From Candidatus Woesearchaeota archaeon (GTDB lineage: Archaea > Nanobdellota > Nanobdellia > Woesearchaeales > GW2011-AR4), in the NCBI GenBank assembly GCA_018303185.1, contig JAGVYR010000030.1, positions 1 through 54,562 on the forward strand: a stretch of 54,562 nt of DNA, given 5' to 3'. Below the pieces are notes generated by a model, which was not told the origin of the DNA, ran no database searches, and was given only the letters and a program-made list of their open reading frames with translations. The position numbers were made by a program, and so were the translations under genes. Numbering within the stretch: the stretch's first letter is position 1; every line of letters begins with the position of its first letter. Positions 23,020 through 54,373 of this stretch are shown piece after piece.

Positions 23020-23760
23020 ATGGAAAGAAAAAAGGACTTTGAAGCATTATACAGGAAGAATCTTGAGCTTACGAAGAAGCAGGTTAGGGAAGCTGTAAAT
23101 GAAGACTTATTGATAATACAGGCCATAAGCAGCGTAGGAGACATAGACAAAACCGCTAATCTGCTGTCAAAGAGGCTCAGGGAATGGTTTGCCCTTTATA
23201 ATCCTGAATTGGAGCATCGGGTAAAGGAGCATGAAGAGTTTGTGAAGCTTGTTATTGCCCAGAACGAAAAGAAGGCAGATGATTCAATGGGCAAGAGCTT
23301 TGAAAAAGAAGATTTCGGGCAGATACTAAGCCTTGCAGGGCATATAAACTCGCTGTACGAATTAAGGCAGCAGTACTTCAATTACCTTGAAAAAATACTG
23401 AAAAAATACTGCCCGAGCGTGCTTGCAATAACAGGGCCGATAATAGGGGCAAAGCTATTCGGGCATGCAGGAAGCCTGAGGAAACTGGCTGTTTTGCCTT
23501 CTTCAACAATACAGCTTCTTGGGGCCGAAAAAGCATTGTTCAGGCACCTTCAAACCAGAGGACGTGCAAAATCGCCAAAGCATGGCATCCTGAGCCAGCA
23601 TCCTGTAATGGGAAAAGTCAAATTTAAAGAGCACGGCAAGGCTGCAAGGGTGCTTGCAGACAAGATATCCCTTGCTGCAAGGATAGACTACTTCAAAGGG
23701 CAGTATGCGGGCGATAAGCTGAGGAAAGAGATTGAGGAGAAATTCGGAAAATGGGAGTAA
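23020..23760 (+). CDS. nop5: Nop5 (Nop56/58) box C/D sRNP protein lacking the N-terminal domain
   Basis: It contains LLIIQAISSVGDIDKTANLLSKRLREWFALYNPEL and SSTIQLLGAEKALFRHL...PKHGIL (the Nop domain). Only about 22 residues precede the coiled-coil/NOSIC region. It overlaps flpA. Confidence 0.8.
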   Translation: MERKKDFEALYRKNLELTKKQVREAVNEDLLIIQAISSVGDIDKTANLLSKRLREWFALYNPELEHRVKEHEEFVKLVIAQNEKKADDSMGKSFEKEDFGQILSLAGHINSLYELRQQYFNYLEKILKKYCPSVLAITGPIIGAKLFGHAGSLRKLAVLPSSTIQLLGAEKALFRHLQTRGRAKSPKHGILSQHPVMGKVKFKEHGKAARVLADKISLAARIDYFKGQYAGDKLRKEIEEKFGKWE

Positions 23761-24428
23761 GAAAATCAAAAATCTTCGAGGTTTACGAATCTGATGACTT
23801 CAGGAAAAGGAAGCTGTATACTGCAAACTTAGTTCCCGGAAAAAAAGCTTACGGCGAGAATATTGCTGTGCAGGATGGGATAGAATACAGGGAATGGGAT
23901 GCCGGCAGCAGCAAGCTTGCCTCTTTGATACTCAACGGATGCACAAACACAGGGATAAGAAACGGCGATGTTGTGCTTTATCTTGGAAGCTCCACAGGAA
24001 CAACAGTGAGCCACGTCTCTGATATTGTGGGGAAAGAAGGATTTGTGTTCGCTTTGGATGTAGCTCCAAGAGTCATGAGGGATTTAGTTTTCATGTGCGA
24101 GGACAGGAAAAATATTGCTCCAATACTTGCAGATGCGAATAAGCCAGACAGCTTTAAGGACAGGGTAATGGAAGCTGACGTGCTGTATCAGGACATTGCG
24201 CAAAAAAATCAGGTTGAAATTTTCCTGAAGAACGTGAAGGCATTTCTGAAGAAAGGCGGCTATGCCCTGCTTGCTGTAAAAGCCAGAAATATTGATGTCA
24301 CAAGAAACCCTAAAGACATATTCAGGCAGGTGCGCGCTGAGCTTGAAAGCCATCTTACCATAATTGATTTCAGAACTCTGGATCCGTATCAAAGGGACCA
24401 CTGCATGTTTGTTTGCAAGAGGCAGTAA
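23751..24428 (+). CDS. flpA: fibrillarin-like 2'-O-methyltransferase
   Basis: It contains YREWDAGSSKLAS, VLYLGSSTGTTVSHVSDIV and DVLYQDIAQ. Confidence 0.9.
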   Translation: MGVRKSKIFEVYESDDFRKRKLYTANLVPGKKAYGENIAVQDGIEYREWDAGSSKLASLILNGCTNTGIRNGDVVLYLGSSTGTTVSHVSDIVGKEGFVFALDVAPRVMRDLVFMCEDRKNIAPILADANKPDSFKDRVMEADVLYQDIAQKNQVEIFLKNVKAFLKKGGYALLAVKARNIDVTRNPKDIFRQVRAELESHLTIIDFRTLDPYQRDHCMFVCKRQ

Positions 24429-32160: not shown

Positions 32161-33621
32161 TTAAGGGAAGTATACTTCCGTCTCCGGGTGGAATGCGGCC
32201 CATGCAAACCAAAACAGCGTCTCGACCGCTATATCACTTCCTTCTGATGCTTTAGCTTTGGCACTCTTTAAAGTATTATTAAAATCTACAATGATTTTTT
32301 CTCCACCTAATGAATCCTCAACTGTTCCAACACGCTCCAAATCGCTTTTTTTGTATGCCTTAAATTTCCCATTAAGCTCTATCCCGTAAACTATTTCGTA
32401 AGCATCAAGCCTGAAATCCTCATTCTGCAGCCTGAACCTGAGGTTTATATCGGTAAAATCTCCATCCCTGCCATAGGGATTGCTGCCGCTGTAATCCCTG
32501 GATGGAAAACCGGTGTCCTTTGAAAGTACTTCACTATCAGGATATGCCTTTTTCCAATCACCCCACTTTACGGTGTCTGTGGGGAGCTTTTTCAGCTTTG
32601 TCCCGGTCAAAGGGCCTATAACTGCCTTTCCGAGCGTTTGCGGCCAATAAGAATCTGTTTTCCTGTCGTACATGACAAGCTCCGAGTTTAATAATTTTCC
32701 GGAAACGCCGAATTCAACCGCTTCTCCGCCTATTTCCCTGTGAAATGCCAGTCCGGTGAAGCACAGCGGGCAGTAAGATACCAATATGGGGTCTCCCAGT
32801 ATATTGTCATTTACAATCTCATGGCTTACCAGAATCCTGAAGGGGTAGAACCTTTTCTCGCCCCTGTAAACTATGCCCAGGCCAAGCTCATCGTCAGGGA
32901 GCCACTTGCCTGCATTTTCCACTTCAATAAACTTTGGATTATCTATCGAAGGTATGCCGTCTTTTGGAACTCCGCCAGAGAGAAGCTCATCCGGATGAAT
33001 GATATACCTTGTTCCATCCTGCAGAGTTTTTATTTCGTCCGCCACACTCAAACCTATTCCTTTATCCCTATTATCTTCCAATAATTTGCCAAGTTTTTCC
33101 CCAATCTCTTCATCCGTAAGCGGGCCGAATTTTTTGCCTTTAATTCTGCCATCCACCCCTATGAAATAAGTTACCGGCTGAGTAAACACATTATACGCTT
33201 CCCTTGCGCTTTTATCAGGGTCAAGCAATATGGGGTAAGATACCTGAATTTCACCAATGGACTTCCTTACAGCTTCAGGGCTTTCCTGCAAGTTTATTCC
33301 TATTATCTCCAAATTCCCCTTATTTTCCCTGTAGATTTTCTCAAATGCCGGCATCTCCTGCCTGCACGGCGGGCACCATGATGCCCAGAAGTTGAGTATA
33401 ACCGCCTTATTGCCGCGGAATGAGCTCAACTGCACTTTTTCCCCGTTCAAGGAGTTAAGAATGAAATCCGGCGGTAGGTCTCCAATGCCGAGGCCTGTGC
33501 CATGCCCTTTTATAACAGCTGAGTTTTTGTCCTTTTGGAAATAATTTTCTAATACTGGCAAGGCGGCCATTAGTATAATTGTAATAAGCAAAATCAGGAT
33601 AACTTTTTGATTATTCTCCAT
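32161..33621 (-). CDS. membrane-anchored TlpA-like thioredoxin fused to a DUF3179 domain
   Basis: An N-terminal TM segment is followed by ILNFWASWCPPCRQEMP (a Trx CxxC). The C-terminal half contains DGIPSIDNPKF...VSYCPLC, which is typical of DUF3179. Confidence 0.7.
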   Translation of the reverse strand: MENNQKVILILLITIILMAALPVLENYFQKDKNSAVIKGHGTGLGIGDLPPDFILNSLNGEKVQLSSFRGNKAVILNFWASWCPPCRQEMPAFEKIYRENKGNLEIIGINLQESPEAVRKSIGEIQVSYPILLDPDKSAREAYNVFTQPVTYFIGVDGRIKGKKFGPLTDEEIGEKLGKLLEDNRDKGIGLSVADEIKTLQDGTRYIIHPDELLSGGVPKDGIPSIDNPKFIEVENAGKWLPDDELGLGIVYRGEKRFYPFRILVSHEIVNDNILGDPILVSYCPLCFTGLAFHREIGGEAVEFGVSGKLLNSELVMYDRKTDSYWPQTLGKAVIGPLTGTKLKKLPTDTVKWGDWKKAYPDSEVLSKDTGFPSRDYSGSNPYGRDGDFTDINLRFRLQNEDFRLDAYEIVYGIELNGKFKAYKKSDLERVGTVEDSLGGEKIIVDFNNTLKSAKAKASEGSDIAVETLFWFAWAAFHPETEVYFP

Positions 33622-33726
33622 TACAAAAACATTAATGCACCTGTGCTTGATTAATATTTGGTTTAATAAACAACTTATACTTATATACTTTAAGCCAGAG
33701 TTTTCGAAAATGAATTGGGCAATCCA

Positions 33727-33885
33727 TTAAAATTTCACAGCATTTTTTGTAATATCAATATTGCAGCTATTATGGCTCCTGCACCACGCCTCACATCTTT
33801 CCGCCAGTTCTTTCGTTTCATACGCAAAGCCGCATTCCTGACAAATGGAGCAGGTTTTGCCTTTTCTTGTTATCTCATTTGCCAT
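33727..33885 (-). CDS. candidate 52-aa Cys-rich (zinc-ribbon-like) protein
   Basis: It is not in the ORF track. Hand translation gives MANEITRKGKTCSICQECGFAYETKELAERCEAWCRSHNSCNIDITKNAVKF, with 7 Cys including CxxCxxC. It lies between two thioredoxin genes on the same strand. Confidence 0.45.
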   Translation of the reverse strand: MANEITRKGKTCSICQECGFAYETKELAERCEAWCRSHNSCNIDITKNAVKF

Positions 33886-33914
33886 TTTATAGCCGTTATA
33901 AAAATTAAAGATTA

Positions 33915-35111
33915 CTATCCAAAAGTAAACGTATACAGCTTGAACCTTTTCCCTTTCGCCACTATCTCAATCCTGTGCTTCCCGTACTCATAGTCAGCAA
34001 GATTGTAGAGCCTTTCCTCATTGACTTTTGCAATTCCGCTGGTGCCGATATCGCCACCTTTTGTGCTTTCATCCGCTTTTTTCCCGTCAATAAAGACCTC
34101 TATCTCTGCCTCGCTGTCAGAGCCGGCAACGATATTCAGGACTTTGGCATCATAATTCAGGATAAGCCTTGCCCCTTCCTCTTCGGACTCAATGTTGTCT
34201 GCATTAACTTTCCATTTTCCTTCAAGATAGATGTAGTTGTCAAGCATTTTTTCAGGAAGAGTGTAATCAACTATCCTGTTGGCAGGCAGCCCTTCCTCAT
34301 TTCCAAAATTGCCCCTGGTAAAATCATAGCCAAGGTAAAGCTCGGGAGTGCCTATATTTCCGGTAATGGAAACAGCATCTTCCGGCCTGCTTATCTCCAT
34401 GCTAATATCCTGCTCCATGCCCATCCTTTCTGCTCTTTCCTGCAGAAGCTCCTGAATCTTCATTTCTGTCTCGGCATACGCCCCCTCGCCAATATGGTCA
34501 TACCTTACAAAGCCGTCAATGTCAATAAGATACTTGCGGGGCCAGAACCTGTTGTTGTAGGCGCGCCATGTTGAATAGGAGTTGTCCTGCACAATGGGAT
34601 ATTGAAGCCGGTATTTTTCGGCTGCCTGCTTCACGTTATTGTAGTCTTTCTCAAACTCGAATTCAGGAGTGTGCACCCCAATAATGACAAGCCCCTTGTC
34701 CTTATACTTATCATGCCATTCCTTAATGTACGGGAGAGTGCGGATGCAGTTTATGCATGTGTATGTCCAAAAGTCTACCAAAACAACTTTGCCTTTCTGG
34801 TTTGCTATGCTTATGCTGTCATCGGTGTTTATGTAGCCTGCAATTCCCCTTAATTCAGGAGCCTGCTGGAAATTTGCTGATTTCGAGGCAATGGCTTTCT
34901 CATCCGGGATGTAATCTGAAATTCTTTCCTGAACCTGCGCTTGATTTGAGCCTGAAGATTCTGAATTTTCCGCAGGAATATCGCTTTCTATTGAATTTTC
35001 ATCCAAGATATCCACTTCTGAAGGCACTGAAACCTTTTGGGACTCAAAATAGTAAATCAGCGAGGCTATTGCCGTCAATACAATTATCAATGCAAATGCC
35101 CTGTTTTTCAC
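33915..35111 (-). CDS. TlpA-like thioredoxin with a DipZ-type C-terminal domain
   Basis: It contains VLVDFWTYTCINCIRTLP (CxxC) and PELYLGY...YLEGKWKV, as in the C-terminal part of actinobacterial DipZ. The GTG start lies 1 nt after the ccdA stop, with AGGAGG upstream. Confidence 0.7.
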   Translation of the reverse strand: MKNRAFALIIVLTAIASLIYYFESQKVSVPSEVDILDENSIESDIPAENSESSGSNQAQVQERISDYIPDEKAIASKSANFQQAPELRGIAGYINTDDSISIANQKGKVVLVDFWTYTCINCIRTLPYIKEWHDKYKDKGLVIIGVHTPEFEFEKDYNNVKQAAEKYRLQYPIVQDNSYSTWRAYNNRFWPRKYLIDIDGFVRYDHIGEGAYAETEMKIQELLQERAERMGMEQDISMEISRPEDAVSITGNIGTPELYLGYDFTRGNFGNEEGLPANRIVDYTLPEKMLDNYIYLEGKWKVNADNIESEEEGARLILNYDAKVLNIVAGSDSEAEIEVFIDGKKADESTKGGDIGTSGIAKVNEERLYNLADYEYGKHRIEIVAKGKRFKLYTFTFG

Positions 35112-35112
35112 C

Positions 35113-35853
35113 TTATTCCTCCTTTTTTATTGCGGTTGCGGCAAGGTAGCTGAGAAATGCCGGGATAAGGGGAAGGACGCACGGGCTGAGGAATGAGGCG
35201 ATGCCCGCTATGAAAGAGATTCCAAGCCCGACTGTGCTTCCTGAAGCGCTGATTCCTGCATCAAGGGACACAAGCAGGCTGGATACAGCTGAGAAGTTGG
35301 CAACTCTTGAAAGGTTGTTTGTAAAAACAAGGACGCCTATCAGTACAAGCAGGGCTCCAAAGATGTAATTGACAATCTTCAGCTTATCGGTGTACCTGCT
35401 TATCCATCCTGAAGCGCGGTCTGTGAAAAGGCCTACAACAAGGAACGGTATGCCCAAGCCAAGCGAGTAAGAAAGCATAAGCGGGAACGCGCTGCCAGGA
35501 TTTGAGACTGCCAGAGTAAGTATAGCGCCAAGAATTGCACCTACGCAGGGCGTCCAGCCTACAGCGAATGCAGCGCCGAAAACAAATGACGTTATGTAGG
35601 AATACCTGAACTTCCTCTTTACCTGCAGCTTGTGCTCGCGCTCAAGGAATGGTATTTTAACAAGGCCGAGCAGGAAGATTCCAAAGAATATTATTATTGC
35701 TCCTCCAATCCAGCCAAGTACCTTCTGCACTTTGAAAGCGTATGCTGAGAGCACGCTCTGGAGTAAAACACCCACAACAGAAAAGACAAGGCTGAAGCCC
35801 AATACGAAAAATACAGAGTTTATGAAAATGCTCCACTGCTTTTTGCCTTCCAT
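35113..35853 (-). CDS. ccdA: CcdA/DsbD-family thiol-disulfide electron transporter
   Basis: It has 6 TM segments, with FLSPCVLPLIP and GWTPCVGAILG (the two conserved Cys). Confidence 0.85.
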   Translation of the reverse strand: MEGKKQWSIFINSVFFVLGFSLVFSVVGVLLQSVLSAYAFKVQKVLGWIGGAIIIFFGIFLLGLVKIPFLEREHKLQVKRKFRYSYITSFVFGAAFAVGWTPCVGAILGAILTLAVSNPGSAFPLMLSYSLGLGIPFLVVGLFTDRASGWISRYTDKLKIVNYIFGALLVLIGVLVFTNNLSRVANFSAVSSLLVSLDAGISASGSTVGLGISFIAGIASFLSPCVLPLIPAFLSYLAATAIKKEE

Positions 35854-35854
35854 A

Positions 35855-36400
35855 TCAGTTTACACCTGCGCTGTTTATAGATTCTATTACCTTGTCCTTT
35901 GTGAATGCCTCCAAAGACCTTGAGGCTTCTTTTCCATCGCTGCCAATTATTACCTTTGTATGCTGCAGCCTTATATTGAATTTCTCTATCATTTCCTTGT
36001 CCTCTTCATTTGTTTTGCCGTCATTGAAATGAACCTCATAGCCAACGACATTTTCATTGTCCAATTCATTGAAAGCTGAGAATATGTGCGGCTGCTCTGC
36101 ATTGCAGATAGGGCACCAGTCTGCATGAAAGTCAAGGAAGATAGTTTTTCCTTCCTTTAACGACTGCTCGTAATGGGCTTTGTCAAACCTATAATAATTA
36201 TTTGCGAGTTTTTCCAGATTTTCGTTGGATTCCATCATTGCGCCTTTTCCAATAGTGCTGTCCTTTTCCATCATATTGCCCGTTTCAATGGCTTTTTCCT
36301 GTATCGCTTCCTCATTTATCTCTGCATTCCGGGCAACATTAGAGCATCCGTATGCGAAAACCATTGCCGCCATTAAAATTCCCAAAAACACCGATTTCAT
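35855..36400 (-). CDS. secreted or lipobox-like thioredoxin-fold protein
   Basis: The signal peptide ends in FAYGCS. It contains FLDFHADWCPICNAEQP. Confidence 0.7.
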   Translation of the reverse strand: MKSVFLGILMAAMVFAYGCSNVARNAEINEEAIQEKAIETGNMMEKDSTIGKGAMMESNENLEKLANNYYRFDKAHYEQSLKEGKTIFLDFHADWCPICNAEQPHIFSAFNELDNENVVGYEVHFNDGKTNEEDKEMIEKFNIRLQHTKVIIGSDGKEASRSLEAFTKDKVIESINSAGVN

Positions 36401-41574: not shown

Positions 41575-41729
41575 GGTCAACTTAAGGAAGGGTGCCTCAT
41601 TATTTCTGCTGAGGCAATGAATGCGTTCTGGAACAATGGAACAGTTTTTCCCCAATAAAAAATATCCAATGGCTCAAAATAAAAAACATTCAAAAAACTG
41701 CCGAAGCAGATGGCACCCTTAAGTTGGCC
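41575..41729 (+). repeat. second repeat family, copy H
   Basis: Its termini are GGTCAACTTAAGGAAGGGTGCC and GGCACCCTTAAGTTGGCC. The core at 41625-41663 matches 24480-24518 at 38 of 39 positions. Confidence 0.5.
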
Positions 41730-41783
41730 ATATCTCCGGGAAGCGACGATAGATTTAAATACCATAAACATAACTATTACAAC

Positions 41784-41987
41784 ATGAGCGACACAATAAC
41801 TATACCCAAATCGGAATACAAGAAGCTAAAGGAATCTGTAACAATATCAAAAGCAGAATATGAGGAGATGCTTGAAACTATTGAAATTTTAAGCGACAGG
41901 GGCATTCTGAAAGATATCAGTGATTCCAAGAAGCAGTTTGAAGAAGGCAAATTTACGACTTTAAGCAATCTCAAAAATGAAATTTGA
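41784..41987 (+). CDS. antitoxin (Phd/YefM/RelB-like)
   Basis: 67 aa with EEMLETIEILSD. It overlaps the downstream RelE-family gene by 11 nt. Confidence 0.6.
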   Translation: MSDTITIPKSEYKKLKESVTISKAEYEEMLETIEILSDRGILKDISDSKKQFEEGKFTTLSNLKNEI

Positions 41988-42246
41988 GGTTGTCGTTCCT
42001 GATAAAATAAAGAAGAGAATTCTGAAGCTCGAGAAAGCTGACAGGGAAAGAATTTTTGAGAAACTTGACGAATTGTCCCCTAATTATGAGTTGGGCAAGC
42101 ACCTTTCTTCCATAAACCTATGGAGCTTAAGGGCAGGGGACTACAGGATTCTTTACCAAGCTGATAAAGGCAGAATAAAGATATTTGTCTTCCATTTCGG
42201 AGGCAGGAAGAATGTTTACGATATCCTGAAAAAGCTTTCCAGGTAA
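41977..42246 (+). CDS. RelE/ParE-family toxin
   Basis: It contains LWSLRAGDYRILYQADKGRIKIFVFHFGGRKNVY and is a paralogue of 8722-8982. Confidence 0.8.
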   Translation: MKFEVVVPDKIKKRILKLEKADRERIFEKLDELSPNYELGKHLSSINLWSLRAGDYRILYQADKGRIKIFVFHFGGRKNVYDILKKLSR

Positions 42247-42258
42247 AACAAAAAACCC

Positions 42259-42960
42259 TTAAGCCCTGAAGGTGAACTTCTTCCTTATCTCGACAAAGCT
42301 CTCTGCCTTTACTTTCATTTTCTCAAGGGCCTTGTCAAGCACTGCATTCAGGGTTACATATGAAACAGCAATCCCGGATGCGAAAAGAAGCCTTTCAACC
42401 AAAACTACCGGTATGAGGGCAATGTAAGCTTCAACAGTCATTGGCACTGACCATATCCATATTGCGCCGCCAACAGCATGGGCTGCGAAAGTAGAGCCAA
42501 GGCTCTTTGCCATGACGCCTTCTGAATACTTCTTTGGCAGGACTGCTGCTATCAATGGGACTGTCCAGAACAGCGAGAAGTACCATACCTGCTTTCCCAA
42601 TGGGTGCGCTATAAATGCTGCTATTGCAATCAATGAAACAGCAATTCCGAAGCTTTTCCTCTTTGTTCCGAAATAGTATGCTGCAAAAAGCATAGGCAGG
42701 ATTCTTAGCAGGCTGAGCATTGAAAACTGGGTTCCTGCTATGAAAAAGTTTGAAAGCTGTGCAATCAAGACAGATGCAGCGCCTACAACAGGGCCAAGAA
42801 ACATGCCTGCTGTGGGCCCGAAGAGCTGGAACAGGGTAAAGAACTGGTTTTCTTTTCCAACCAATGCAGAGAAGTTGATGTTCATTCCGACAAGGGACAG
42901 CAAAGCAAACAATCCCAAAAACAATACACCTTTTTTCGTAAAGAGCTTTTTGAATTCCAT
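42259..42960 (-). CDS. polytopic membrane protein (possible transporter substrate-capture component)
   Basis: It has about 6 TM segments. The ATG at 42960 is preceded by AGGTGAT. The function is not established. Confidence 0.5.
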   Translation of the reverse strand: MEFKKLFTKKGVLFLGLFALLSLVGMNINFSALVGKENQFFTLFQLFGPTAGMFLGPVVGAASVLIAQLSNFFIAGTQFSMLSLLRILPMLFAAYYFGTKRKSFGIAVSLIAIAAFIAHPLGKQVWYFSLFWTVPLIAAVLPKKYSEGVMAKSLGSTFAAHAVGGAIWIWSVPMTVEAYIALIPVVLVERLLFASGIAVSYVTLNAVLDKALEKMKVKAESFVEIRKKFTFRA

Positions 42961-43010
42961 AAGGATATCACCTAGAAAATGCATAACTGATGGGTTTAAA
43001 AATGTTTTTA

Positions 43011-43514
43011 TCAAAACCCCTGCATCAGATGCACAGAATAAGTCTTTCCTTTCGGAATTCTTCTTATTAAGTTCCTTTTTTCAAAATCAGTCAGAACCTG
43101 AGAGACTTTTGCCTTTGATAAATCAGTGCGGAAAGTCAAAGTAGTCTGGGTTATGCCGTCCTGCTCTTTCACCGCCTTCAAAATGCGCTGCTCATAAGTA
43201 TCCATGACATTCAGGACAAGGCTGAACTTGTCTTCCTGCACTTTTGTATTTTTTTCCTGCTCAAGCCTTTCAAGTATTGCCTGCTCGCTTTTGTTAAAGA
43301 ACAATAAAAAGAAACCGAGGGAAGCTATGAAAGAGACAATGCCTATCGCAATATGTGATGTGCCTATGGCGCTCCTTACCTGCTGGCATCTTTCTGTAGG
43401 CGCGCACTGGAGGGCCTGCTCCTGCCTGTTCAAAGTTCCCATGAAAGAGAACAGCATAAAGCCTAGCACTATACTGACCCCTAATATCAGAAAGCCGAGC
43501 TTTTTTGACTCCAT
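43011..43514 (-). CDS. membrane-anchored MarR-like wHTH regulator
   Basis: It has two TM segments with a Cys-containing loop (CAPTERC). The C-terminus reads ILKAVKEQDGITQTTLTFRTDLSKAKVSQVLTDFEKRNLIRR. The ATG is preceded by GGTGGA. Confidence 0.65.
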   Translation of the reverse strand: MESKKLGFLILGVSIVLGFMLFSFMGTLNRQEQALQCAPTERCQQVRSAIGTSHIAIGIVSFIASLGFFLLFFNKSEQAILERLEQEKNTKVQEDKFSLVLNVMDTYEQRILKAVKEQDGITQTTLTFRTDLSKAKVSQVLTDFEKRNLIRRIPKGKTYSVHLMQGF

Positions 43515-43586
43515 AATCCACCTTTTAGGATAAAAAGGAAAAAACACTATAAAAAGATTGTGCTTTTTGCCAAGGAAAAAATTAAA

Positions 43587-45334: not shown

Positions 45335-46105
45335 TCATTCAGCCTTATTGTAAATCCCGTACAGATTGTAAGATCCTATGAAAAACATCATGCCACTGAG
45401 AATCTGTCCCATCGTGAGCCAGCCGAAATAAAAGCCAAGCTGCGCGTCAGGAGCGCGGTAAAACTCGACAATGAAGCGGAGGAATCCGTAAAGCGCCACG
45501 AAAGCCCAGAACAGAAAGCCGCGAGGAAGCTTTAGTTTTCTTATATTCCATAATACTGTGAAACTCAATAAATTCTTTAATGAAGCGTATATCTGGGAAG
45601 GGTGGCGGAAGCCTTCAGCTCCCCGAAACTTGACTGCCCATGGCACATTAGTAATGCGGCCATACAGCTCGCCATTGGCAAAATTTCCCAATCTTCCGAG
45701 GGCAAGGCCAAGCGCAAGCGGAATTACAGTGATGTCGGCCATGTCGTAGAAATGCAATCTCTTTCTTTTCGTGAAGATAATACCGCCGATAACAGCGCCC
45801 ACAAGCCCGCCGTGGAAAGAGAGGCCGCCGTGCCAAACTGCGAAAATGTCGAGAGGGTTTGCGGCGTAGAAAGGAAGATTGTATATCAAAATGTAGAAAA
45901 CCCTTGCGCCAAGGATTGCCCCAATCAGAATATGAAGCAAGTAATCGGAGATATCATCCTTTGAAAGCTTCAATCCCTTTTCCTTCGAAAGCTTGATGAG
46001 CATGAAATACGCAATCACAAAGCCAAGAGCCCAGAACATGCCATAATACCTTACCTCCAGAGGCCCGAGCCTCAGAAGCACAGGGTCTATGGATGAAGTG
46101 AACAT
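45335..46105 (-). CDS. lgt: prolipoprotein diacylglyceryl transferase (bacterial type)
   Basis: It contains RYYGMFWALGF, HGGLSFHGGLVGAVIG, LGRLGNFANGELYG and RHPSQIYASL, which together form the Lgt signature set. Confidence 0.85.
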   Translation of the reverse strand: MFTSSIDPVLLRLGPLEVRYYGMFWALGFVIAYFMLIKLSKEKGLKLSKDDISDYLLHILIGAILGARVFYILIYNLPFYAANPLDIFAVWHGGLSFHGGLVGAVIGGIIFTKRKRLHFYDMADITVIPLALGLALGRLGNFANGELYGRITNVPWAVKFRGAEGFRHPSQIYASLKNLLSFTVLWNIRKLKLPRGFLFWAFVALYGFLRFIVEFYRAPDAQLGFYFGWLTMGQILSGMMFFIGSYNLYGIYNKAE

Positions 46106-46106
46106 C

Positions 46107-46859
46107 CTATTTGCCTCCTTTTTCCCTAGCTATAAGATAAAAGTAAAAGCGGTTGAAGAACAAAATAAGATACGGGATGGCAATCAGGGCTATGAGATAT
46201 ACTCTTATCGTGGCAGGATAAAGCGCGAGATTATTGCCAAATCTTATGTAGTACTGCGCATAATCTTTCAGTATGCTGTTAGCGCCTATGAAATACCACA
46301 GCGCAAACAAAACTATCATTGAGGCAATGCTCCAGAGATACAATCCGATATAAGAGCTGATTTTCGCAAACGCCATTCCAAGGGATTTCCTGAGCAGCTC
46401 AGCGAATTTCTTCGTGTCAGAAAAGCAGGAATGGGAAAAATTCAGCAAAGGATAGAAAAAGAAAAGCAGTGCTAAGGAAAGCACTATGAACATTATCTGG
46501 CCGAGAAGAGGTTTCATCATGGAAATAAAAAATAATATAGCAAAAGCAAACACATTAAGGGCAACAGCCAGCATTGCATTAAGCCCAAGGAATTTCGGAA
46601 ACAGCTTTGCTTCGGTTTTTTTCGGTGAGAAGACACCGGATATGCTGCTAATAACCAAAAATTTGGATATTGAATAAGCCAAAACCATGACCGCGAAGTA
46701 AATGAGCTGGCTAATCGGCGAAGCCGGAAAAAGTCCCTTGATGAAAAATGCGGCAGTGAAGAAAACAAGGTCAATCACAAGCACTGTCAGGGCAACATCA
46801 TAATTATTTTTGATCAGCTTTGCTGTCCTGAGAAAATAGGATTCTTTAAAGGAACTCAT
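46107..46859 (-). CDS. hypothetical polytopic membrane protein in the dsbA-lgt operon
   Basis: It has about 6-7 TM segments. The ATG at 46859 overlaps the upstream stop as ATGA. No family recognised. Confidence 0.5.
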   Translation of the reverse strand: MSSFKESYFLRTAKLIKNNYDVALTVLVIDLVFFTAAFFIKGLFPASPISQLIYFAVMVLAYSISKFLVISSISGVFSPKKTEAKLFPKFLGLNAMLAVALNVFAFAILFFISMMKPLLGQIMFIVLSLALLFFFYPLLNFSHSCFSDTKKFAELLRKSLGMAFAKISSYIGLYLWSIASMIVLFALWYFIGANSILKDYAQYYIRFGNNLALYPATIRVYLIALIAIPYLILFFNRFYFYLIAREKGGK

Positions 46860-47302
46860 GGGCTTATTCGGCAACCTGTTGCCTGTGCAAGGCTGTCAAA
46901 GCTCTGCACTTTCTCAAGCTTTTTTCCGCCTATGACCCATGTGGGCGTAAATCTGATATCTGGCCCTTCTGTGAAGTCCCTGTAGTCAACATATTTGAAG
47001 GATTTTCCGAACATTCCTCTCTGGGCCTGCGAGTACTGGCACCACGAGGCACCATACATGACAGCGCCTTTTTCCGAAAGGCATTGCGCAAAGCCGTCAT
47101 GAAGGCCGGGCTTCTGGGCATTGTAGAATGCAAATCCAATTGCAGAAATCGCAACTAAAACTATAACAGCGCCTATTATCCAAGGAATTTTGCTCTTTTT
47201 TGCTTCCTGCTGGGGGCTTGTATCAGGATGCTGCTTTGCAGCCTCTGCCTGCTGCCTTATGCTCTCCAGTTTAGCAAGCTTCCTTTCCTTTCTGGTTGAC
47301 AT
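46856..47302 (-). CDS. membrane-anchored thioredoxin-like protein with a CxxS site (VKOR-partner type)
   Basis: FAQCLSEKGAVMYGASWCQYSQAQRGMFG...TPTWVIGG resembles the Trx-like domain fused to cyanobacterial VKOR. Its active site reads CQYS rather than CxxC. Confidence 0.6.
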   Translation of the reverse strand: MSTRKERKLAKLESIRQQAEAAKQHPDTSPQQEAKKSKIPWIIGAVIVLVAISAIGFAFYNAQKPGLHDGFAQCLSEKGAVMYGASWCQYSQAQRGMFGKSFKYVDYRDFTEGPDIRFTPTWVIGGKKLEKVQSFDSLAQATGCRISP

Positions 47303-47308
47303 CTTACC

Positions 47309-47527
47309 TTACAATGATGCGGATGGCTCTGAAACTGCTGAAGGGGTTTCAGTCACAGGAGCCGGAGCAACACCGCAGCCGCCGCCATAGTAAGCGTTTG
47401 GCTGTCCTGCGCCGTACTGGCCCTGCTGCCCATATGCCGCATATCCGGTAGGACCGGAATTCCTGCTGCATCCTACAACTAACAATGCCAAAACCAAAAT
47501 TAAAGCAAATAAAGCTGTTTTTTTCAT
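47309..47527 (-). CDS. small lipobox lipoprotein, G/Q/Y/A-rich
   Basis: The signal peptide MKKTALFALILVLALLVVGCS carries a canonical lipobox (VVGC). The mature part is low-complexity. Confidence 0.55.
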   Translation of the reverse strand: MKKTALFALILVLALLVVGCSRNSGPTGYAAYGQQGQYGAGQPNAYYGGGCGVAPAPVTETPSAVSEPSASL

Positions 47528-47538
47528 GTTCTCACCTT

Positions 47539-48300
47539 TTAGTTTGCAAGCTCAGCCTCAATTACCTGCTGGAAATTCTGGAACGGATGAGCTCCTATCA
47601 ATGGTATCCCATTTATCAAAAAGCCCGGTGTTCCGCTTATTCCTGCTTGTGAGCCCTGGCTGAAATCTTCCTGTATCTCTGCCCTGTATTTTCCTGTTTC
47701 TACACAGCTGTTGAACTTGTCCATGTCAAGGCCAAGCTTCTGCGCAATTTCAGTGTATAGTGCTGCACCCATTCTGCCCTGGTTCTGGTAAATCTGGTCG
47801 TGGAATTCCCAGAACTTGCCCTGCTCATGGGCGCATTCTGCGGCTTCTGCAGCCGGCTGCGCCTCAGGGTGGAAGCTCAACGGGAAGTCTTTGTAGACCA
47901 TCTTTACTTTTCCAGTTTTTATATATTTCTCTTCAATCTGCCCAAGAGTATCCTGATAAAATCGGCCGCAGTAAGGGCACTGGAAATCTGCAAATTCCAC
48001 AATTGTTACAGGAGCATCTGCATCGCCCTTTACAGGGTCGCCTTCAAGGCTTACCTGCTGCCTCTGAGGCTCGCCCTGCGGCTCCTGCTGTGTCGGCTGC
48101 GGCGCAGCTGCCTGCTGCTGGCCTCCGCCTGTATTTGCGCCGACGCTTGGACCGCCTGAACCTGTGAACCACATGACAACAATTATTATCGCTAAAACTG
48201 CAGATACAATCTGCCAAAGAGTCTCTTTCTTAATTGTGTAAGCCTCTTTCTTTGGCTCGTGCATGTGATGCACATGCGGCTTGTCTTCTTTTTCATCCAT
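47539..48300 (-). CDS. membrane-anchored DsbA-like thiol:disulfide oxidoreductase
   Basis: An N-terminal TM segment and a Q/P-rich linker are followed by VTIVEFADFQCPYCGRF and GTPGFLING. Confidence 0.8.
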   Translation of the reverse strand: MDEKEDKPHVHHMHEPKKEAYTIKKETLWQIVSAVLAIIIVVMWFTGSGGPSVGANTGGGQQQAAAPQPTQQEPQGEPQRQQVSLEGDPVKGDADAPVTIVEFADFQCPYCGRFYQDTLGQIEEKYIKTGKVKMVYKDFPLSFHPEAQPAAEAAECAHEQGKFWEFHDQIYQNQGRMGAALYTEIAQKLGLDMDKFNSCVETGKYRAEIQEDFSQGSQAGISGTPGFLINGIPLIGAHPFQNFQQVIEAELAN

Positions 48301-48480
48301 ATTAAATGCACCCCTTTATCGGCTGTCAATCTGAGGGCTTTTATAAAGTTTTGCCCCCTTTGCCTTGTTATTTTATGATAGGATATATAATTAATCATGA
48401 AGACGGTATGGCATTTTGGCTTTTAAACTGAAAAACGGGGCTTATTTATGTTCATTATTGTTCATGCTGTGTTATTTCAG

Positions 48481-49323: not shown

Positions 49324-50541
49324 ATGCAAAACCTATCATTCACAGTAAAGAAAGAAGCAAAAAAAAGCAGGGCAAGGCTTGGAATTATTGAAGTTGCCCA
49401 CGGTAAGATTGAGACGCCATACTTTGTCCCTGTGGCTACTGCTGCCACTGTGCGGGGTTTGGACCAAATGGACATGGAAGAATTGAGGGCGCAGGTTTTG
49501 CTGGCAAACACTTATCACCTTCATTTAAGGCCCGGAGACAAAAACGTGAAAAAGCTTGGCGGGCTTCATAGGTTCATGAACTGGAACAAGCCTTTATTTA
49601 CAGATTCAGGAGGATTTCAGGCGTTTTCCCTGGGATACGGGATGGAGCACAACATCAATAAACTGGGGAATATTTTTCCTGAAAACAAGAAAACCAAAAC
49701 AGAAGATATAAAGGAAAAATTTGCAACCATAAACGACAAAGGAGTAACGTTCAAGGCGCATCATTCAGGCGAGATAATCCATTTGAACCCAAAGAAGTCA
49801 ATAGAGATACAACAGAATCTTGGGGCTGACATCATTTTGGCTTTTGACGAGTGTACATCTCCATTGTCTTCAAAGGAATATACAAAGACTGCAATGGAAA
49901 GGACGCACAGGTGGGCTATAGAATCGTTAAAGTTTCACAAGAAAAAAGCAAAAAAAACAAAGCAGGCACTTTACGGAATAATACAGGGCGGAGAATACAG
50001 GGATTTAAGGGATGAATCAACCAGATTCATAACTTCTCTTGATTTTGACGGCATTGCAATCGGCGGCTCACTGGGGAAGTCAAAGAATGACATGCATAAC
50101 ATCCTTGACTGGGTTATTCCTTCGCTTCCAAAAAACAAGCCCCGCCATCTTCTTGGGATTGGGGATATTGATGACATTTTCATTGCAGTGGAAAAGGGAA
50201 TTGACACTTTTGACTGCGTCTATCCGACAAGAATAGCTAGAAGAGGCACTCTCTTGGTTACTCCCGAAGAAGGCGGCTCATTAAAGAATAAATTCAGGCT
50301 GAATATTGGCAATGCAAAGTTTAAGCTGGACAAAAAGCCGGTTGACAGGACTTGCACATGCAGCACGTGCAGGAATTATTCAAGGGCTTACCTAAACCAC
50401 CTGTACAAGACAAAAGAGCTTGCCTATTTCAAGCTTGCAGCGCTGCACAACGTGCATTTCATGCTCAATCTGATGGAAAGGATAAGGGAAGCGATAAGGA
50501 ATGATTCCCTTCATAAGCTGAAAAAGAAATGGCTAGGATAG
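49324..50541 (+). CDS. tgt: tRNA-guanine transglycosylase, bacterial (queuine/preQ1) type
   Basis: It contains ETPYFVPVATAATV, LANTYHLHLRPG, FTDSGGFQAFSL, DTFDCVYPTR and the zinc site CTCSTCRNYSRAYLNHL..H. It has no PUA or C-terminal ArcTGT domains. Confidence 0.85.
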   Translation: MQNLSFTVKKEAKKSRARLGIIEVAHGKIETPYFVPVATAATVRGLDQMDMEELRAQVLLANTYHLHLRPGDKNVKKLGGLHRFMNWNKPLFTDSGGFQAFSLGYGMEHNINKLGNIFPENKKTKTEDIKEKFATINDKGVTFKAHHSGEIIHLNPKKSIEIQQNLGADIILAFDECTSPLSSKEYTKTAMERTHRWAIESLKFHKKKAKKTKQALYGIIQGGEYRDLRDESTRFITSLDFDGIAIGGSLGKSKNDMHNILDWVIPSLPKNKPRHLLGIGDIDDIFIAVEKGIDTFDCVYPTRIARRGTLLVTPEEGGSLKNKFRLNIGNAKFKLDKKPVDRTCTCSTCRNYSRAYLNHLYKTKELAYFKLAALHNVHFMLNLMERIREAIRNDSLHKLKKKWLG

Positions 50542-51404: not shown

Positions 51405-52145
51405 TTATCCGTCTGCCCTGTCAGCCTCTTTTTTAAGGCGCCTTGCCCAGTAGACAAATGGAGTGTCGCAGACTGCCACGACAAATTTCATTACGTAGCT
51501 TACCCAGAATATCTCAATGATTATGGGCCACTCAAAGACCTGCTCCCAATGAACCCTTCCATAAGTAAAAAAAGATTCCAATCCAAAAGCCCCTACAAAT
51601 GCTATATAAGTAAAAATAGCATTATCTAAAAGCTGGGAAACCATTGTAGATGCGTTATTCCTGATCCAGAGATGCTTTCCCTTTGTCTTTTTCTTCCAGA
51701 ACTGGAATGCCCATACGTCATGGAACTGGGAGACAAGATAGGCTGCCAATGAAGCTACAACAATCCTCGGGAAAAAGCCGAATACCTGCTCGAGCGCAGG
51801 GCTCATGATGTCGGACTCGTCAGGCACGAACTGAAGTGTAACTTGCATCACTACGGCAGTCATGATGAGGACAAAAAACCCTATTATCACTGCCTTATTT
51901 GCCTCTTTTTTCCCGTAATTCTCGCACAGGATGTCTGTTATTAAAAATGTTGAGCTGTAGATTATGTTCCCTTCAGCCGTGACAAACCCGAAAACCTTGA
52001 TTGTCTTCAAAACCTGTATGTTTGCAAGTATTATGGAGATAGCTGTCCAGACATAGAGGCCTGTCCTTCCGAATAATTTGTATGATGCTATCACTCCCAG
52101 GAAAATGAACAGGAGCAAAAACACCCATAAAAGCTCGTTTATCAT
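51405..52145 (-). CDS. yhhQ: YhhQ-like queuosine-precursor (7-deazaguanine) transporter
   Basis: TAEGNIIYSSTFLITDILCENYGKKEANKAV and DNAIFTYIAF are typical of the YhhQ/DUF165 family. Confidence 0.7.
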   Translation of the reverse strand: MINELLWVFLLLFIFLGVIASYKLFGRTGLYVWTAISIILANIQVLKTIKVFGFVTAEGNIIYSSTFLITDILCENYGKKEANKAVIIGFFVLIMTAVVMQVTLQFVPDESDIMSPALEQVFGFFPRIVVASLAAYLVSQFHDVWAFQFWKKKTKGKHLWIRNNASTMVSQLLDNAIFTYIAFVGAFGLESFFTYGRVHWEQVFEWPIIIEIFWVSYVMKFVVAVCDTPFVYWARRLKKEADRADG

Positions 52146-52156: not shown

Positions 52157-52990
52157 TTATTTCTTCAGATGCTTATCCAAAAAAGCAACTGTCTTTTCCC
52201 AGGCATCCTTTGTCTTTTCAGCATCATGGCCCGCGTTTGAAGGGTTTGCAAAGGCATGGCCTACTCCTTCATAGATGTAAATTTCGTTTTCAACGCCAAG
52301 CTCATCCAGCGCAGCGTCAAACTCATTTACTGATGAGACAGGGATTCCTGTGTCTTCCTCTCCAAATACGCCAAGCACGGGCCAGTTGATGGCATCAAGC
52401 TGCTCAGGATCTGTAACTAAATTTCCGTAGTAGATGACAGTCGCTGAAAGGTTTTCATTGAAGGAAAGCTGAAGGCTCATCCCGCCTCCGAAGCACCATC
52501 CCATTGAGGCTATGTCATTCTGTATTACGTCTTCCCTGCTGTTGAGATAGGAGACGGCAGCCTTCATGTGCTCAATTGCAGCTTCAGGGTTTTCCCTAAC
52601 TTCAGAAGCGTAAGTGCGTGCATCATCCGGAACTTCAGCAACCTTTCCTCCGTACAAATCCACTGCAAGCACAACATAGCCTTCCTCTGCCAAGTCGTGG
52701 GCCATGTTCTTTATGTTCTGGTTCAGGCCCCACCATTCGTGTATCATTACGACAGCAGGGTATTTTCCTTCTGCTTTTGGAGTTACAAGATAATCATTGT
52801 AGCCATTGTACATTACCCATTTTCCGTCCATGCTTTCGTCAGGCTCTGATATTGCGGCTTCTTCCCCATGCAGGGAAGGGTCATTGTCAATATCTTCCTG
52901 AGTCCTCTCCTGTGTTGTTTGAACAGGAGCACAGGACGCAATAAGCATTATCAAAGCACTAAAAACCAATGCAATTCCGAAATTTTTCAT
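52157..52990 (-). CDS. dienelactone hydrolase-family lipoprotein
   Basis: The signal peptide carries the lipobox LIASC. It contains VVMIHEWWGL, GWCFGG and the H of GVGHAF. The ATG at 52990 is preceded by GGTGA. Confidence 0.8.
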   Translation of the reverse strand: MKNFGIALVFSALIMLIASCAPVQTTQERTQEDIDNDPSLHGEEAAISEPDESMDGKWVMYNGYNDYLVTPKAEGKYPAVVMIHEWWGLNQNIKNMAHDLAEEGYVVLAVDLYGGKVAEVPDDARTYASEVRENPEAAIEHMKAAVSYLNSREDVIQNDIASMGWCFGGGMSLQLSFNENLSATVIYYGNLVTDPEQLDAINWPVLGVFGEEDTGIPVSSVNEFDAALDELGVENEIYIYEGVGHAFANPSNAGHDAEKTKDAWEKTVAFLDKHLKK

Positions 52991-53001
52991 TTTTTCACCA
53001 G

Positions 53002-53958
53002 TCAATTGCCGAAATACCTTGATATAAAAGCTTTTGCCCTTTCCGGGCTCGCTTCCTTGACAAGAACGCGGCCGTCTCTGAATGCAGTCAGCTCGTTGAA
53101 GACGAAGCAGAAGCCGGCATCCTTTATTGGGGCTATCTTTTTTAATTTTTCTTTCGTCTTTTTATAATCTATATCTAAATAAAACTGGTAAACATTGTTG
53201 CCGCAGTACTTTACGGCTTTCTCTTCCTTTTTTCCGCTGAGATATTCATAAATGCCTTTGCAGGCTTTGCATTTTGGATTTTTCTTTATCTTTATTTTTT
53301 CCAATGTATTTTCCCATATATTGAATCTCAACAATTCATTTTCCCTTGTTTTTCCTAAGATAATCTTCAAAACCTGTGTGACAGCGAGAGAAGCTACTGA
53401 TGCAGATGCTGTGTTCAAAATGCCTGCAGTCTCGCAAGTTTCCTCTGCTTTTGAGGCCTGGAAGATGCAGCCAAAGCACGCGCCTTTTGGAAGAAAAGTT
53501 ATTACATTGCCCTCTTCCTTTATCGCTGCCGAGTAAATCCACGGCTTTTTGCTTTTTTTGCAGAACTCGTTGATAATGTGCCTTGTGTATATATTGTCGG
53601 TGCAGTCCAATATAATGCTTGCGTCTTCTAAAATCTGGGTGTTCCTGTGATTCAAATCTGAAACATGGAATTCAATCTCAACATCCGAATTAACGTCTTT
53701 AAGGATTGAAGCAGCAACTTCTGCCTTGTAGCTGCCCACGTCCTTTTCATCGAATAAAGTCTGCCTCTGCAAATTGGAGAGTTCAACAATGTCCCTGTCT
53801 ACAAGGATTAATTTTCCGATGCCTGCCCTTGCCAGAAGGTCAGAGGCAATAGTTCCAAGCGCGCCAATGCCGATTACTGCGACTGCCGCTTTCCTTATTT
53901 TCTCCTGCCCCTTCTTTCCGATGCCATGAAGGGCTGACTGCCTTGAATACCTGTCCAT
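53002..53958 (-). CDS. ThiF/MoeB/UbaA-family E1-like adenylyltransferase with a C-terminal extension
   Basis: It contains RYSRQ, VIGIGALGTIASDLLARAGIG.LILVDRDIVELSNLQRQ and two CxxC pairs. An extra C-terminal domain of about 75 aa is present. The start was set at the ATG at 53958. Confidence 0.8.
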   Translation of the reverse strand: MDRYSRQSALHGIGKKGQEKIRKAAVAVIGIGALGTIASDLLARAGIGKLILVDRDIVELSNLQRQTLFDEKDVGSYKAEVAASILKDVNSDVEIEFHVSDLNHRNTQILEDASIILDCTDNIYTRHIINEFCKKSKKPWIYSAAIKEEGNVITFLPKGACFGCIFQASKAEETCETAGILNTASASVASLAVTQVLKIILGKTRENELLRFNIWENTLEKIKIKKNPKCKACKGIYEYLSGKKEEKAVKYCGNNVYQFYLDIDYKKTKEKLKKIAPIKDAGFCFVFNELTAFRDGRVLVKEASPERAKAFISRYFGN

Positions 53959-54007: not shown

Positions 54008-54373
54008 TCACTTCACAAACTCAACATTCTTCAATTCAGTGAAGTGCTTCTCGCCTGTAAGGAATTTTATTCCAAGCTCAAGCGACATAATGTAGCCTAT
54101 GCAGTCAATATAGGAAATCAGATTCTTCTTTTTCCTCTGCGAAAGCCTGAACTTCATTGCCTGCTTTACAGTGTCCTCGCTTACAGGCACGCATATCGGC
54201 CTGAATTGCGCATAGTACTTTTCAGCTGTCTTTTCATCATACAGCCTAAGGAGGATGTAGTAAAGCTCCATAAGGTTGTAGGAAGTTGTGACAGAAGCGG
54301 AATCGGCAAACTTTTTGTATGCAGGATTGCCCTTTATTATCTCAACTATTGCGTAAGTGTCAAGGAAATGCAT
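54008..54373 (-). CDS. vapC: PIN-domain toxin VapC
   Basis: It begins MHFLDTYAIVEI, has an acidic residue pattern and is 121 aa long. Confidence 0.8.
   Translation of the reverse strand: MHFLDTYAIVEIIKGNPAYKKFADSASVTTSYNLMELYYILLRLYDEKTAEKYYAQFRPICVPVSEDTVKQAMKFRLSQRKKKNLISYIDCIGYIMSLELGIKFLTGEKHFTELKNVEFVK

Follow-up and report, generated by a model that had tools for sequence, protein, structure and literature searches.

A bacterial-type Lgt and a linked membrane protein family in a thiol-redox gene cluster of Woesearchaeota

The only components of lipoprotein lipidation described so far in archaea are AliA and AliB (arCOG02177/02178) of Haloferax volcanii, and DPANN archaea are predicted to be rich in lipoproteins (PMC12462473, PMC13631571). 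According to three recent papers (Nat Commun 2025; mBio 2026; JBC 2026), archaea have neither Lgt nor the other bacterial lipoprotein enzymes, an absence from which these papers argue that archaeal lipids demanded AliA and AliB. A preliminary description of the DNA studied here, made from its letters, took the same view of archaea as these papers and pointed to a locus that does not fit it. This locus lies in the window, by which we mean the whole stretch of 54,562 nucleotides (nt) of contig JAGVYR010000030.1 from a Candidatus Woesearchaeota archaeon (assembly GCA_018303185.1). It consists of five minus-strand genes at 45335-48300, which encode in order a DsbA-like protein, a lipobox protein of 72 amino acids (aa), a thioredoxin (Trx)-like protein, a membrane protein with six transmembrane (TM) helices, hereafter the 6-TM protein, and a bacterial-type Lgt. 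We consider it likely that these genes form an envelope-biogenesis operon of a DPANN archaeon that couples oxidative folding to bacterial-type lipoprotein lipidation.

The lgt gene (45335-46105, minus strand) encodes a protein of 256 aa that matches the Pfam family PF01790 with 237.1 bits over residues 8-246 (cut-off 24.9), the NCBIfam equivalog TIGR00544 with 211.2 bits (cut-off 118.9) and the E. coli Lgt structure 5azb with E=3.7e-47. The signatures HGGL, GRLGNFANGELYG and HPSQIY were all found, and the full signature set read in the preliminary description now stands together with scores above the cut-offs of the family hidden Markov models (HMMs). In a pairwise alignment, residues Y26, H103, D129, R143, N146, E151, G154, H196, Y235, R239, E243 and R246 of E. 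coli Lgt are identical in the window protein (12/12), where they correspond, in the same order, to Y21, H98, D124, R138, N141, E146, G149, H168, Y206, R210, E214 and R217; the loss of catalytic residues, which had been named earlier as a possible objection, is thus not seen. The aligned segments of the E. coli sequence agree with those of the 5azb match. A comparison of 28 sequences from archaea and bacteria shows most of these residues to be invariant or nearly so. The only large difference from E. coli Lgt is the loss of the periplasmic head insert, through a 22-residue deletion in the window protein that corresponds to E. coli residues ~171-192. Bacterial Lgts themselves vary in their head and arm domains (PMC13251419), and this deletion therefore does not exclude the protein from the family. 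By these comparisons the gene is a true and, judging by its residues, catalytically intact member of the bacterial Lgt family embedded in archaeal DNA, and we hold with high confidence that it would provide a DPANN archaeon with a functional bacterial-type Lgt.

The window protein is one of many. Among its best 120 database matches, at 60-71% identity, every named one belongs to Woesearchaeota, Nanoarchaeota or an "archaeon", and the contigs are in some cases 100-322 kb long; the Woesearchaeota/Nanoarchaeota clade is 55-71% identical to the window Lgt. Species-representative genomes (GTDB) included 17 archaeal metagenome-assembled genomes (MAGs) with matches at 37-63%, and bacteria reached at most 42%. 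In a neighbor-joining (NJ) tree, 20 archaeal sequences formed one clade separate from 31 bacterial ones; the bacterial sequences had been selected through peptide patterns, which makes for a biased sample, and this tree does not resolve the bacterial donor. The GC content at third codon positions of lgt (0.556) is close to that of pyruvate kinase (0.577) and CTP synthase (0.539) genes. Because the archaeal clade is large and diverse and the base composition native, the acquisition of lgt appears to be old and not recent, and a transfer from bacteria, if any, would have been ancient, with vertical inheritance ever since and perhaps a second event as well. Of the laterally acquired module proposed in the preliminary description, the bacterial type of Lgt was borne out and a recent arrival was not; the phylogeny that it suggested did separate an archaeal clade from bacteria, with a bootstrap of 37% and two archaeal sequences outside it. 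These two come from the set of fetched lgt-related loci, archaeal and bacterial, that we label L001-L078 and that includes ~30 archaeal loci of 2-17 kb each. The archaeal-labelled Lgts of L030 (4818-6765) and L014 (5998-6765) are 37-40% identical to the window Lgt. The divergent L030 gene starts 1 nt downstream of an eRF1-domain gene and is for this reason taken as truly archaeal, and both sequences may reflect a second, independent acquisition. Four MAG records titled "uncultured Methanosarcinales archaeon" (L002, L003, L004, L009) carry Lgts that nest inside the Woesearchaeota/Nanoarchaeota clade; their titles look like placeholder or wrong taxonomy.

The listing of open reading frames (ORFs) gave the same coordinates and spacings for the five genes as had been described before. 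The DsbA-like thiol oxidase (47539-48300, minus strand; 253 aa) has an N-terminal membrane anchor and the active-site sequence FQCPYC, and is followed after 11 nt by the small lipoprotein precursor (47309-47527, minus strand; 72 aa), with the signal peptide MKKTALFALILVLALLVVGC and the lipobox LVVGC. After 6 nt comes the membrane-anchored Trx-like protein of the VKOR-partner type (46856-47302, minus strand; 148 aa, WCQYS). The gene of the 6-TM protein (46107-46859, minus strand) encodes 250 aa from its ATG, or 255 aa from a TTG at 46874; its ATG overlaps the stop codon of the Trx-like gene by 4 nt (ATGA), and its own stop codon lies 1 nt before the ATG of lgt. Such a start/stop overlap and 1-nt spacing indicate co-translation. 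Within the 180-nt gap upstream of the DsbA gene, the sequence GGGGTG (48309-48314, minus strand) resembles a Shine-Dalgarno element, and a TATA-like box, TTTATAAAA, was read from the sequence at 48339-48347 (minus strand), ~43 nt upstream of the DsbA ATG. Both are likely to belong to a putative operon promoter, and it is plausible that the cluster is one transcription unit. In a Pfam scan the 72-aa, Trx-like and 6-TM proteins showed no family above the cut-off.

The widely conserved part of this arrangement is only the pair formed by the 6-TM protein and Lgt; the presence of DsbA, Trx and the small lipoprotein varies between loci. With the HMM of the 6-TM family run over all fetched loci, its gene was found to precede lgt directly, at a distance of 1-116 nt, in several groups of loci (the window and L065; L001; L058, L059, L060 and L066; L061, L062 and L067; L068, L069 and L071; L072; L073 and L074; L078). 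The distance is 1 nt in L073, L078 and the window. L063 and L064 have the gene two positions downstream of lgt, directly before VKOR and Trx genes, and a 2.3-kb contig (L070) is the only locus of the family that shows no lgt. In all, the 6-TM gene adjoins lgt in at least 10 lineages, amid shuffled gene orders. The 6-TM proteins are 27-32% identical in pairs whose Lgts are 55-70% identical, which means that the adjacency of the two genes has outlasted extensive divergence and rearrangement. By gene context, therefore, the 6-TM protein is a genuine partner of Lgt. A further, well-conserved polytopic protein of the window (42259-43014, minus strand) was considered for the same role and rejected, as its gene keeps a place near lgt, 0.1-1.9 kb downstream, in no more than the close sub-lineage, and the protein has no family match; it scores 312-321 bits against its homologues in L061 and L077, and its single-sequence AlphaFold2 model (predicted local distance difference test, pLDDT, 48) is unusable.

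The 6-TM protein founds, as far as homology searches can tell, a small new family linked to Lgt. An exhaustive HMMER scan of 1.84 billion (1.84e9) representative proteins gave only 34 relatives, of 173-289 aa, and word-indexed searches, with the single sequence or with a profile of 33 sequences, returned almost only the protein itself. No credible Pfam match was obtained in 33 members and none in NCBIfam, and the profile finds nothing among PDB sequences; a match to DUF4271 (23.5 bits, below the cut-off, in one of the 33 members) was judged to be due to chance. Aligned with hhalign, the family is neither a divergent Lgt (probability 0.1% against the Lgt alignment) nor a Lit protein (0.3% against the Lit-family protein of L075, with no PF07314 match in the 33 members). 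AlphaFold2 with the family alignment predicted six long TM helices and no strands (pLDDT 90, predicted template modeling score 0.85). When this model was searched with Foldseek, neither PDB nor BFVD held a match at E<=0.001; the best non-significant ones were the SLC44/CTL-like PNS1 (E=1.8, query-based template modeling score, TMq, 0.52) and CTL1 (TMq 0.45), a similarity that hints, at the very most, at a helical bundle like that of transporters. The conserved positions of the family are D30, F33, Y62, S63, K66, F90, N94 (invariant), Y136, N140, H143, Y170, N236, R237 and F240, some of them with conservative exchanges (H/Q, R/K, D/E and S/T). H143 is Q in 3 of the 33 members; K also occurs at position R237, and N at K66. 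The single conserved aspartate, D30, stands in the middle of TM1. From the family-wide distribution of K and R (positive-inside rule), both termini face the cytoplasm, and the conserved polar residues fall in the middle to the cytoplasmic half of the membrane, a placement based on helix positions and the positive-inside rule.

Candidate substrates for Lgt are encoded in the same window. The 72-aa protein begins MKK-TALFALILVLALL-VVGC, with a positive n-region, a hydrophobic h-region and a lipobox of the form [LVI][ASTVI][GAS]C, and passed the strict scan. Its homologues in L061, L072, L005 and L073 have the lipoboxes FIMGC, LVFGC, FVSAC and MVLGC, and its second cysteine is part of GGGCGVA, of which GGGCG is kept in all five of these proteins; the protein is likely to be a substrate of Lgt. 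The same is likely for a dienelactone hydrolase (52157-53005, minus strand; DLH 181 bits), whose lipobox LIASC is kept as ISAC in L061. These are the two proteins of the window with a strict lipobox. The secreted Trx at 35855-36400 (minus strand; Thioredoxin 30 bits), whose VFAYGC is lipobox-like, is non-canonical at -3 and -2 and fails the strict pattern, and is a possible lipoprotein; of the two additional lipobox proteins claimed in the preliminary description, the hydrolase thus stands on firmer ground than the Trx. A crude census covered 330 kb of archaeal loci and predicted lipobox signal peptides for 17 of their 421 genes; the shadow ORFs that served as control had 7 in 612, and bacterial loci had 6 in 288 genes. 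When Ser or Thr replaced Cys in the pattern, 24 occurrences were counted, although Cys is a much rarer residue, which amounts to a strong over-representation of Cys over Ser/Thr at +1. Lipobox proteins are encoded directly beside lgt in L004, L028, L063 and L076. Cupredoxins with lipoboxes (IAGC, IFGC) were observed in L063 (5116-5508) and L058 (13244-13636), the former immediately downstream of lgt. They are reminiscent of halocyanin, the classic lipid-modified archaeal blue copper protein.

From these data we propose that Lgt, acting on the outer side of the membrane, would S-alkylate the +1 Cys of lipobox precursors exported by Sec. Candidates in the window are the 72-aa protein and the dienelactone hydrolase, to which relatives would add cupredoxins and Trx-like proteins. 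The lipid donor would have a phosphoglycerol head group, since the head-group-binding residues R143 and R239 are kept, and could be either a bacterial-type phosphatidylglycerol or archaetidylglycerol. Castelle et al. (2021) reported bacterial fatty-acid and glycerol-3-phosphate (G3P)-dehydrogenase genes, and possible bacterial hosts, for some Woesearchaeota, which makes a bacterial-type phosphatidylglycerol donor plausible; other Woesearchaeota probably scavenge archaeal lipids. DsbA (CPYC), re-oxidized through a stand-alone VKOR, would put disulfides into exported proteins, and the monothiol VKOR-type Trx would probably be linked through mixed disulfides to clients that have one cysteine, the neighboring small lipoprotein for example. 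The 6-TM protein would work with Lgt.

Several points weigh against this proposal. The glycerol-1-phosphate (G1P) stereochemistry and the ether chains of archaeal lipids might be ill-suited to Lgt, and both the activity of Lgt and the nature of its donor are read from sequence comparison. The bootstrap for archaeal monophyly in the NJ tree is only 37%, and the archaeal L014 and L030 sequences were placed among bacteria. Many archaeal Lgt loci (L002-L013, L075-L077) have no 6-TM gene near lgt, which means that the 6-TM protein is not obligatory or is encoded elsewhere, and its role is deduced from gene context and residue patterns only. Finally, no Lsp was found in the archaeal DNA available (the window and the ~30 loci of 2-17 kb each), so that the cleavage step is unaccounted for.

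The strongest of the alternatives is that the archaeal homologue was recruited to another reaction, such as the transfer of archaeol from archaetidylglycerol or an action on a non-protein acceptor; it would in that case fall outside the lipoprotein diacylglyceryl transferases as bacteria have them. Archaeal membranes normally do not have ester-linked sn-1,2-diacylglycerol lipids, Haloferax attaches archaeol by the unrelated AliA/AliB, the periplasmic head domain is deleted in the window Lgt, and its fast-evolving partner protein is specific to these archaea, all of which would agree with such a recruitment. Nevertheless, the catalytic and head-group-binding residues are all unchanged, lipobox proteins are conserved and clustered around lgt, and bacterial Lgts too vary in their head and arm domains. 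Moreover, if an ether lipid were transferred to the lipobox Cys, this would still be lipoprotein lipidation. On balance, we regard a change of reaction as a real but rather unlikely explanation, and lipidation of lipobox proteins as the preferred one.

The next question concerns the removal of the signal peptide. An E. coli LspA sequence used as a probe found no Lsp in the window or in the ~30 archaeal loci, and did find bacterial Lsp in L042, L051 and L057, which served as positive control. In two of these bacterial loci, lsp precedes lgt and overlaps its 5' end (L042, 5541-6014, Margulisiibacteriota; L051, 5541-6023, unclassified bacterium). That cleavage does take place in these archaea is suggested by L075, whose Lgt is 67% identical to that of the window. 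In this locus the gene after lgt encodes a DsbD-type membrane protein and the next one a Lit-family protein (8770-9402; PF07314 110 bits, TIGR01906 88 bits), which reaches the cut-off of the broad TIGR01906 model (75) but not that of the Lit equivalog; 3 kb further on is the gene for an Lnt-like protein (12424-13794) with LNT_N and CN_hydrolase domains, both above the Pfam cut-offs, and with 103 bits to TIGR00546, below the cut-off of 133. Bacterial Lit and Lnt act on the free amino group of the lipidated N-terminal Cys, and signal peptides must therefore be removed in these archaea. The Lit- and Lnt-like genes beside lgt further indicate that the lineage holds several bacterial lipoprotein-maturation enzymes.

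It could thus be argued that the 6-TM protein is a non-homologous lipoprotein signal peptidase that replaces Lsp and cleaves after Lgt, in line with the earlier suggestion of a signal-peptidase II analogue at 46107-46859. Its gene is translationally coupled to lgt (a gap of 1 nt in the window, L073 and L078, and of 5-15 nt elsewhere) in at least 10 lineages, in the slot that lsp occupies in the bacterial L042 and L051; besides the null result of the LspA probe, the literature reports no Lsp in archaea, and the Lit and Lnt of L075 imply a signal-peptidase II activity. The properties of the protein itself speak otherwise. It has no sequence or fold similarity to Lsp: where that family has four TM helices, a periplasmic beta-cradle and an Asp dyad at the outer boundary, the AlphaFold2 model has six long helices and no strands, and no Lsp chain was among its PDB matches in Foldseek, so that the fold comparison proposed in the preliminary description returned neither a likeness to Lsp nor any significant match. 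With D30 as the single conserved Asp there is no dyad, and the positions H143, R237 and K66 tolerate the exchanges given above. The positive-inside rule places the conserved polar residues in the cytoplasmic half of the membrane, and the scissile bond is located at the outer leaflet. The protein evolves fast, with 27-32% identity where Lgt has 55-70%, and its gene is not near lgt in L075, the very locus with Lit and Lnt. Taken together, these features leave a peptidase role unlikely, and the earlier suggestion stands as a minority hypothesis. The larger scenario in which the 6-TM family is the missing, non-homologous signal peptidase, and Woesearchaeota have a complete pathway of Lgt, a new peptidase and Lit/Lnt, possibly working on ether lipids, is one that we consider quite improbable; if true, it would mean that the bacterial lipoprotein machinery works across the lipid divide with one step re-invented. 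The fast evolution, the conservative substitutions and the inward-facing polar cluster favor instead a non-catalytic or transport-like accessory that would handle the lipid donor or a by-product for Lgt in a cell that possibly does not make its own lipids, a role that we put forward tentatively, as the best guess and not as the probable answer.

Whether the five genes form a functional unit depends on their fate in relatives. The full order was found only in the close relatives L061, L062, L067 and L065, and in L072 with one inserted gene, and in most archaeal loci from GTDB the other four genes are not within 6 kb of lgt, as would be expected if they were mere neighbors kept together by recent common ancestry. 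This possibility is, however, hard to reconcile with the rearranged orders seen at large distances, such as 6-TM protein-Lgt-DsbA-Trx in L078, Lgt-cupredoxin-flavodoxin-like-6-TM protein-VKOR-Trx in L063 and small lipoprotein-Trx-6-TM protein-Lgt, without DsbA, in L073, or with the DsbA genes beside lgt in L004 and L007; the overlaps and 1-nt spacing that indicate co-translation argue in the same direction. Since distant relatives have these components again, though in other orders, the five genes are more simply understood as functionally linked, and we find coincidence of descent a very unlikely account of the cluster.

The archaeal origin of the contig is confirmed, and it is not chimeric. 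Nop5 (182 bits) and fibrillarin (262 bits; 263 bits to the archaeal NCBIfam equivalog, cut-off 113) adjoin at 22999-24428 of the window, secF precedes secD with archaeal-type models as the best for both, and GC is even along the window. Regulators of the DUF7343 and HFX_2341_N families, which were first defined in haloarchaea, are encoded 2-8 kb from lgt. The region from ThiF to FTR1 is reproduced in the independent assemblies L061 and L062, and the identical Lgt protein occurs on 10 contigs. In other assemblies lgt lies ~140 nt from the S17e and Rpb6/RpoK genes (L076 and L077, the latter an NCBI Nanoarchaeota MAG) or 2.5 kb from an L34e gene (L078), and more than 20 archaeal MAGs share the Lgt clade, some with contigs of 190-344 kb. 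Thus, although MAG binning of DPANN genomes is error-prone and Lgt, DsbA, VKOR, the Q-type tRNA-guanine transglycosylase (TGT) and YhhQ are all typically bacterial families, the idea that the contig or its lgt region is bacterial contamination or a chimeric assembly, and hence that there is no archaeal Lgt, has a negligible chance of being right, being refuted already by the above, the archaeal genes next to lgt in independent assemblies (including the eRF1-domain gene) among them, as far as sequence data allow. The possibility of a bacterial or chimeric contig had been raised beforehand, and Nop5, fibrillarin, the even GC and the synteny with L061 and L062 answer it. A tRNA scan and an Rfam scan found no tRNA and no Rfam family in the window.

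Regarding the redox partners, the DsbA-like protein scored 131 bits to Thioredoxin_4 and 72.5 bits to DSBA, and carries CPYC behind its N-terminal TM segment; DsbA genes recur beside lgt in L004, L007, L061, L072 and L078. The Trx-like protein matches, over residues 42-144, the Trx domain of the Synechococcus VKOR fusion (3kp9, 4nv6, 3kp8; E=1e-9 to 3e-9), in agreement with its earlier assignment as a VKOR-partner-type Trx with CQYS. This active site is monothiol and not CxxC; CxxS/T is found also in L061, L072, L073, L005 and L075, and CxxC in L063, L070 and L078. The residues C74 and C144 are common to all members and absent from the cyanobacterial domain, and the Trx-like proteins of L063 and L078 are themselves lipoproteins (LSGC, LAGC). 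As the monothiol Trx adjoins a single-cysteine lipoprotein, a mixed disulfide may form between the two. A stand-alone VKOR is encoded at 13034-13465 (plus strand; 143 aa, PF07884 68 bits), its cysteines being those of a loop pair, CSAKTC, and of the active site, CNLC, and is likely to be the quinone-linked re-oxidant of DsbA and/or the Trx-like protein; in L063, the VKOR gene comes directly after that of the 6-TM protein. A second minus-strand cluster of thiol-redox genes (32161-36400), composed of a DUF3179/AhpC-TSA fusion, Thioredoxin_10/AhpC, CcdA/DsbD_TM and the secreted Trx with AYGC, looks like a reducing pathway of the CcdA type that would complement the oxidizing DsbA/VKOR. A membrane-anchored winged-helix regulator (DUF7343/MarR-like, with an N-terminal TM segment) is encoded at 43011-43547 (minus strand) and in L005, L058, L072 and L076. 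It recurs 0.1-5 kb from lgt in five lineages, often with DoxX, cupredoxin, DUF411 and HMA-ATPase genes, a neighborhood that may mark a copper or redox-stress envelope island.

A queuine TGT of bacterial type (49324-50541, plus strand) scored 517 bits to the TIGR00430 equivalog and only 142 bits to the archaeosine TgtA model, and a queuosine-precursor transporter YhhQ/Vut_1 (51405-52145, minus strand) scored 235 bits to TIGR00697; bacterial queuosine genes were already reported in some DPANN (Castelle et al., 2021), and in L013 a TGT gene comes directly after lgt. In addition, the window encodes an HNH endonuclease domain fused to N-terminal TM segments (10218-10763, minus strand), a PIN-domain protein (54008-54373, minus strand) and a pair of small overlapping ORFs of 87 and 89 aa (41724-42246, plus strand) that looks like a toxin-antitoxin pair.

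The archaeal Lgt proteins are already labelled as such by automatic annotation. Our literature search retrieved no paper pairing Woesearchaeota with Lgt, and none of those treating DPANN and Lgt reports an archaeal homologue; the catalogue of bacterial systems in DPANN by Castelle et al. (2021) does not mention Lgt. The archaeal lgt genes are thus public but unremarked in the literature found. A large, conserved and, by its residues, catalytically intact clade in Woesearchaeota/Nanoarchaeota contradicts the claim that Lgt is absent from archaea, and the case against it gains from the Lit- and Lnt-like genes that at least one relative carries. This raises the questions of whether the Lgt fold works on archaeal G1P ether lipids or on bacterial-type lipids scavenged from bacterial hosts, whether Lgt-bearing DPANN fill gaps in the phyletic pattern of AliA, and how archaea dispose of the signal peptides of their lipoproteins. 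In the 6-TM family linked to Lgt there is a concrete candidate partner that can be cloned.

Compared with known systems, the oxidizing branch of the cluster shares a four-Cys VKOR, a CPYC DsbA and a VKOR-type Trx with the Synechococcus VKOR-Trx fusion (3KP9) and with the VKOR plus DsbA-like proteins of Actinobacteria; unlike in the fusion, the Trx-like protein of the window is separate, membrane-anchored, monothiol in its lineage and equipped with an extra conserved Cys pair. Homologues of bacterial Lit (PF07314/TIGR01906) and Lnt (TIGR00546) stand beside lgt in L075 and not in the window, and the L075 versions score below the cut-offs of the Lit equivalog and TIGR00546. As in the bacterial lsp-lgt operons of L042 and L051, a small polytopic gene overlaps or abuts the 5' end of lgt; however, the archaeal slot holds an unrelated 6-TM family of ~250-290 aa, with neither the Asp dyad nor the fold of Lsp, and no such partner gene of Lgt is known in bacteria. 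The core of the window Lgt aligns end to end with that of E. coli Lgt (PDB 5AZB), with GRxGNFxNGExxG, HGGL and HPSQ kept, whereas the archaeal protein is shorter (256 against 291 aa), lacks the 22-residue head insert and is at most 42% identical to the bacterial sequences sampled. With AliA/AliB, the system would share its presumed outcome, a thioether-linked lipid on the lipobox Cys of archaeal secreted proteins.

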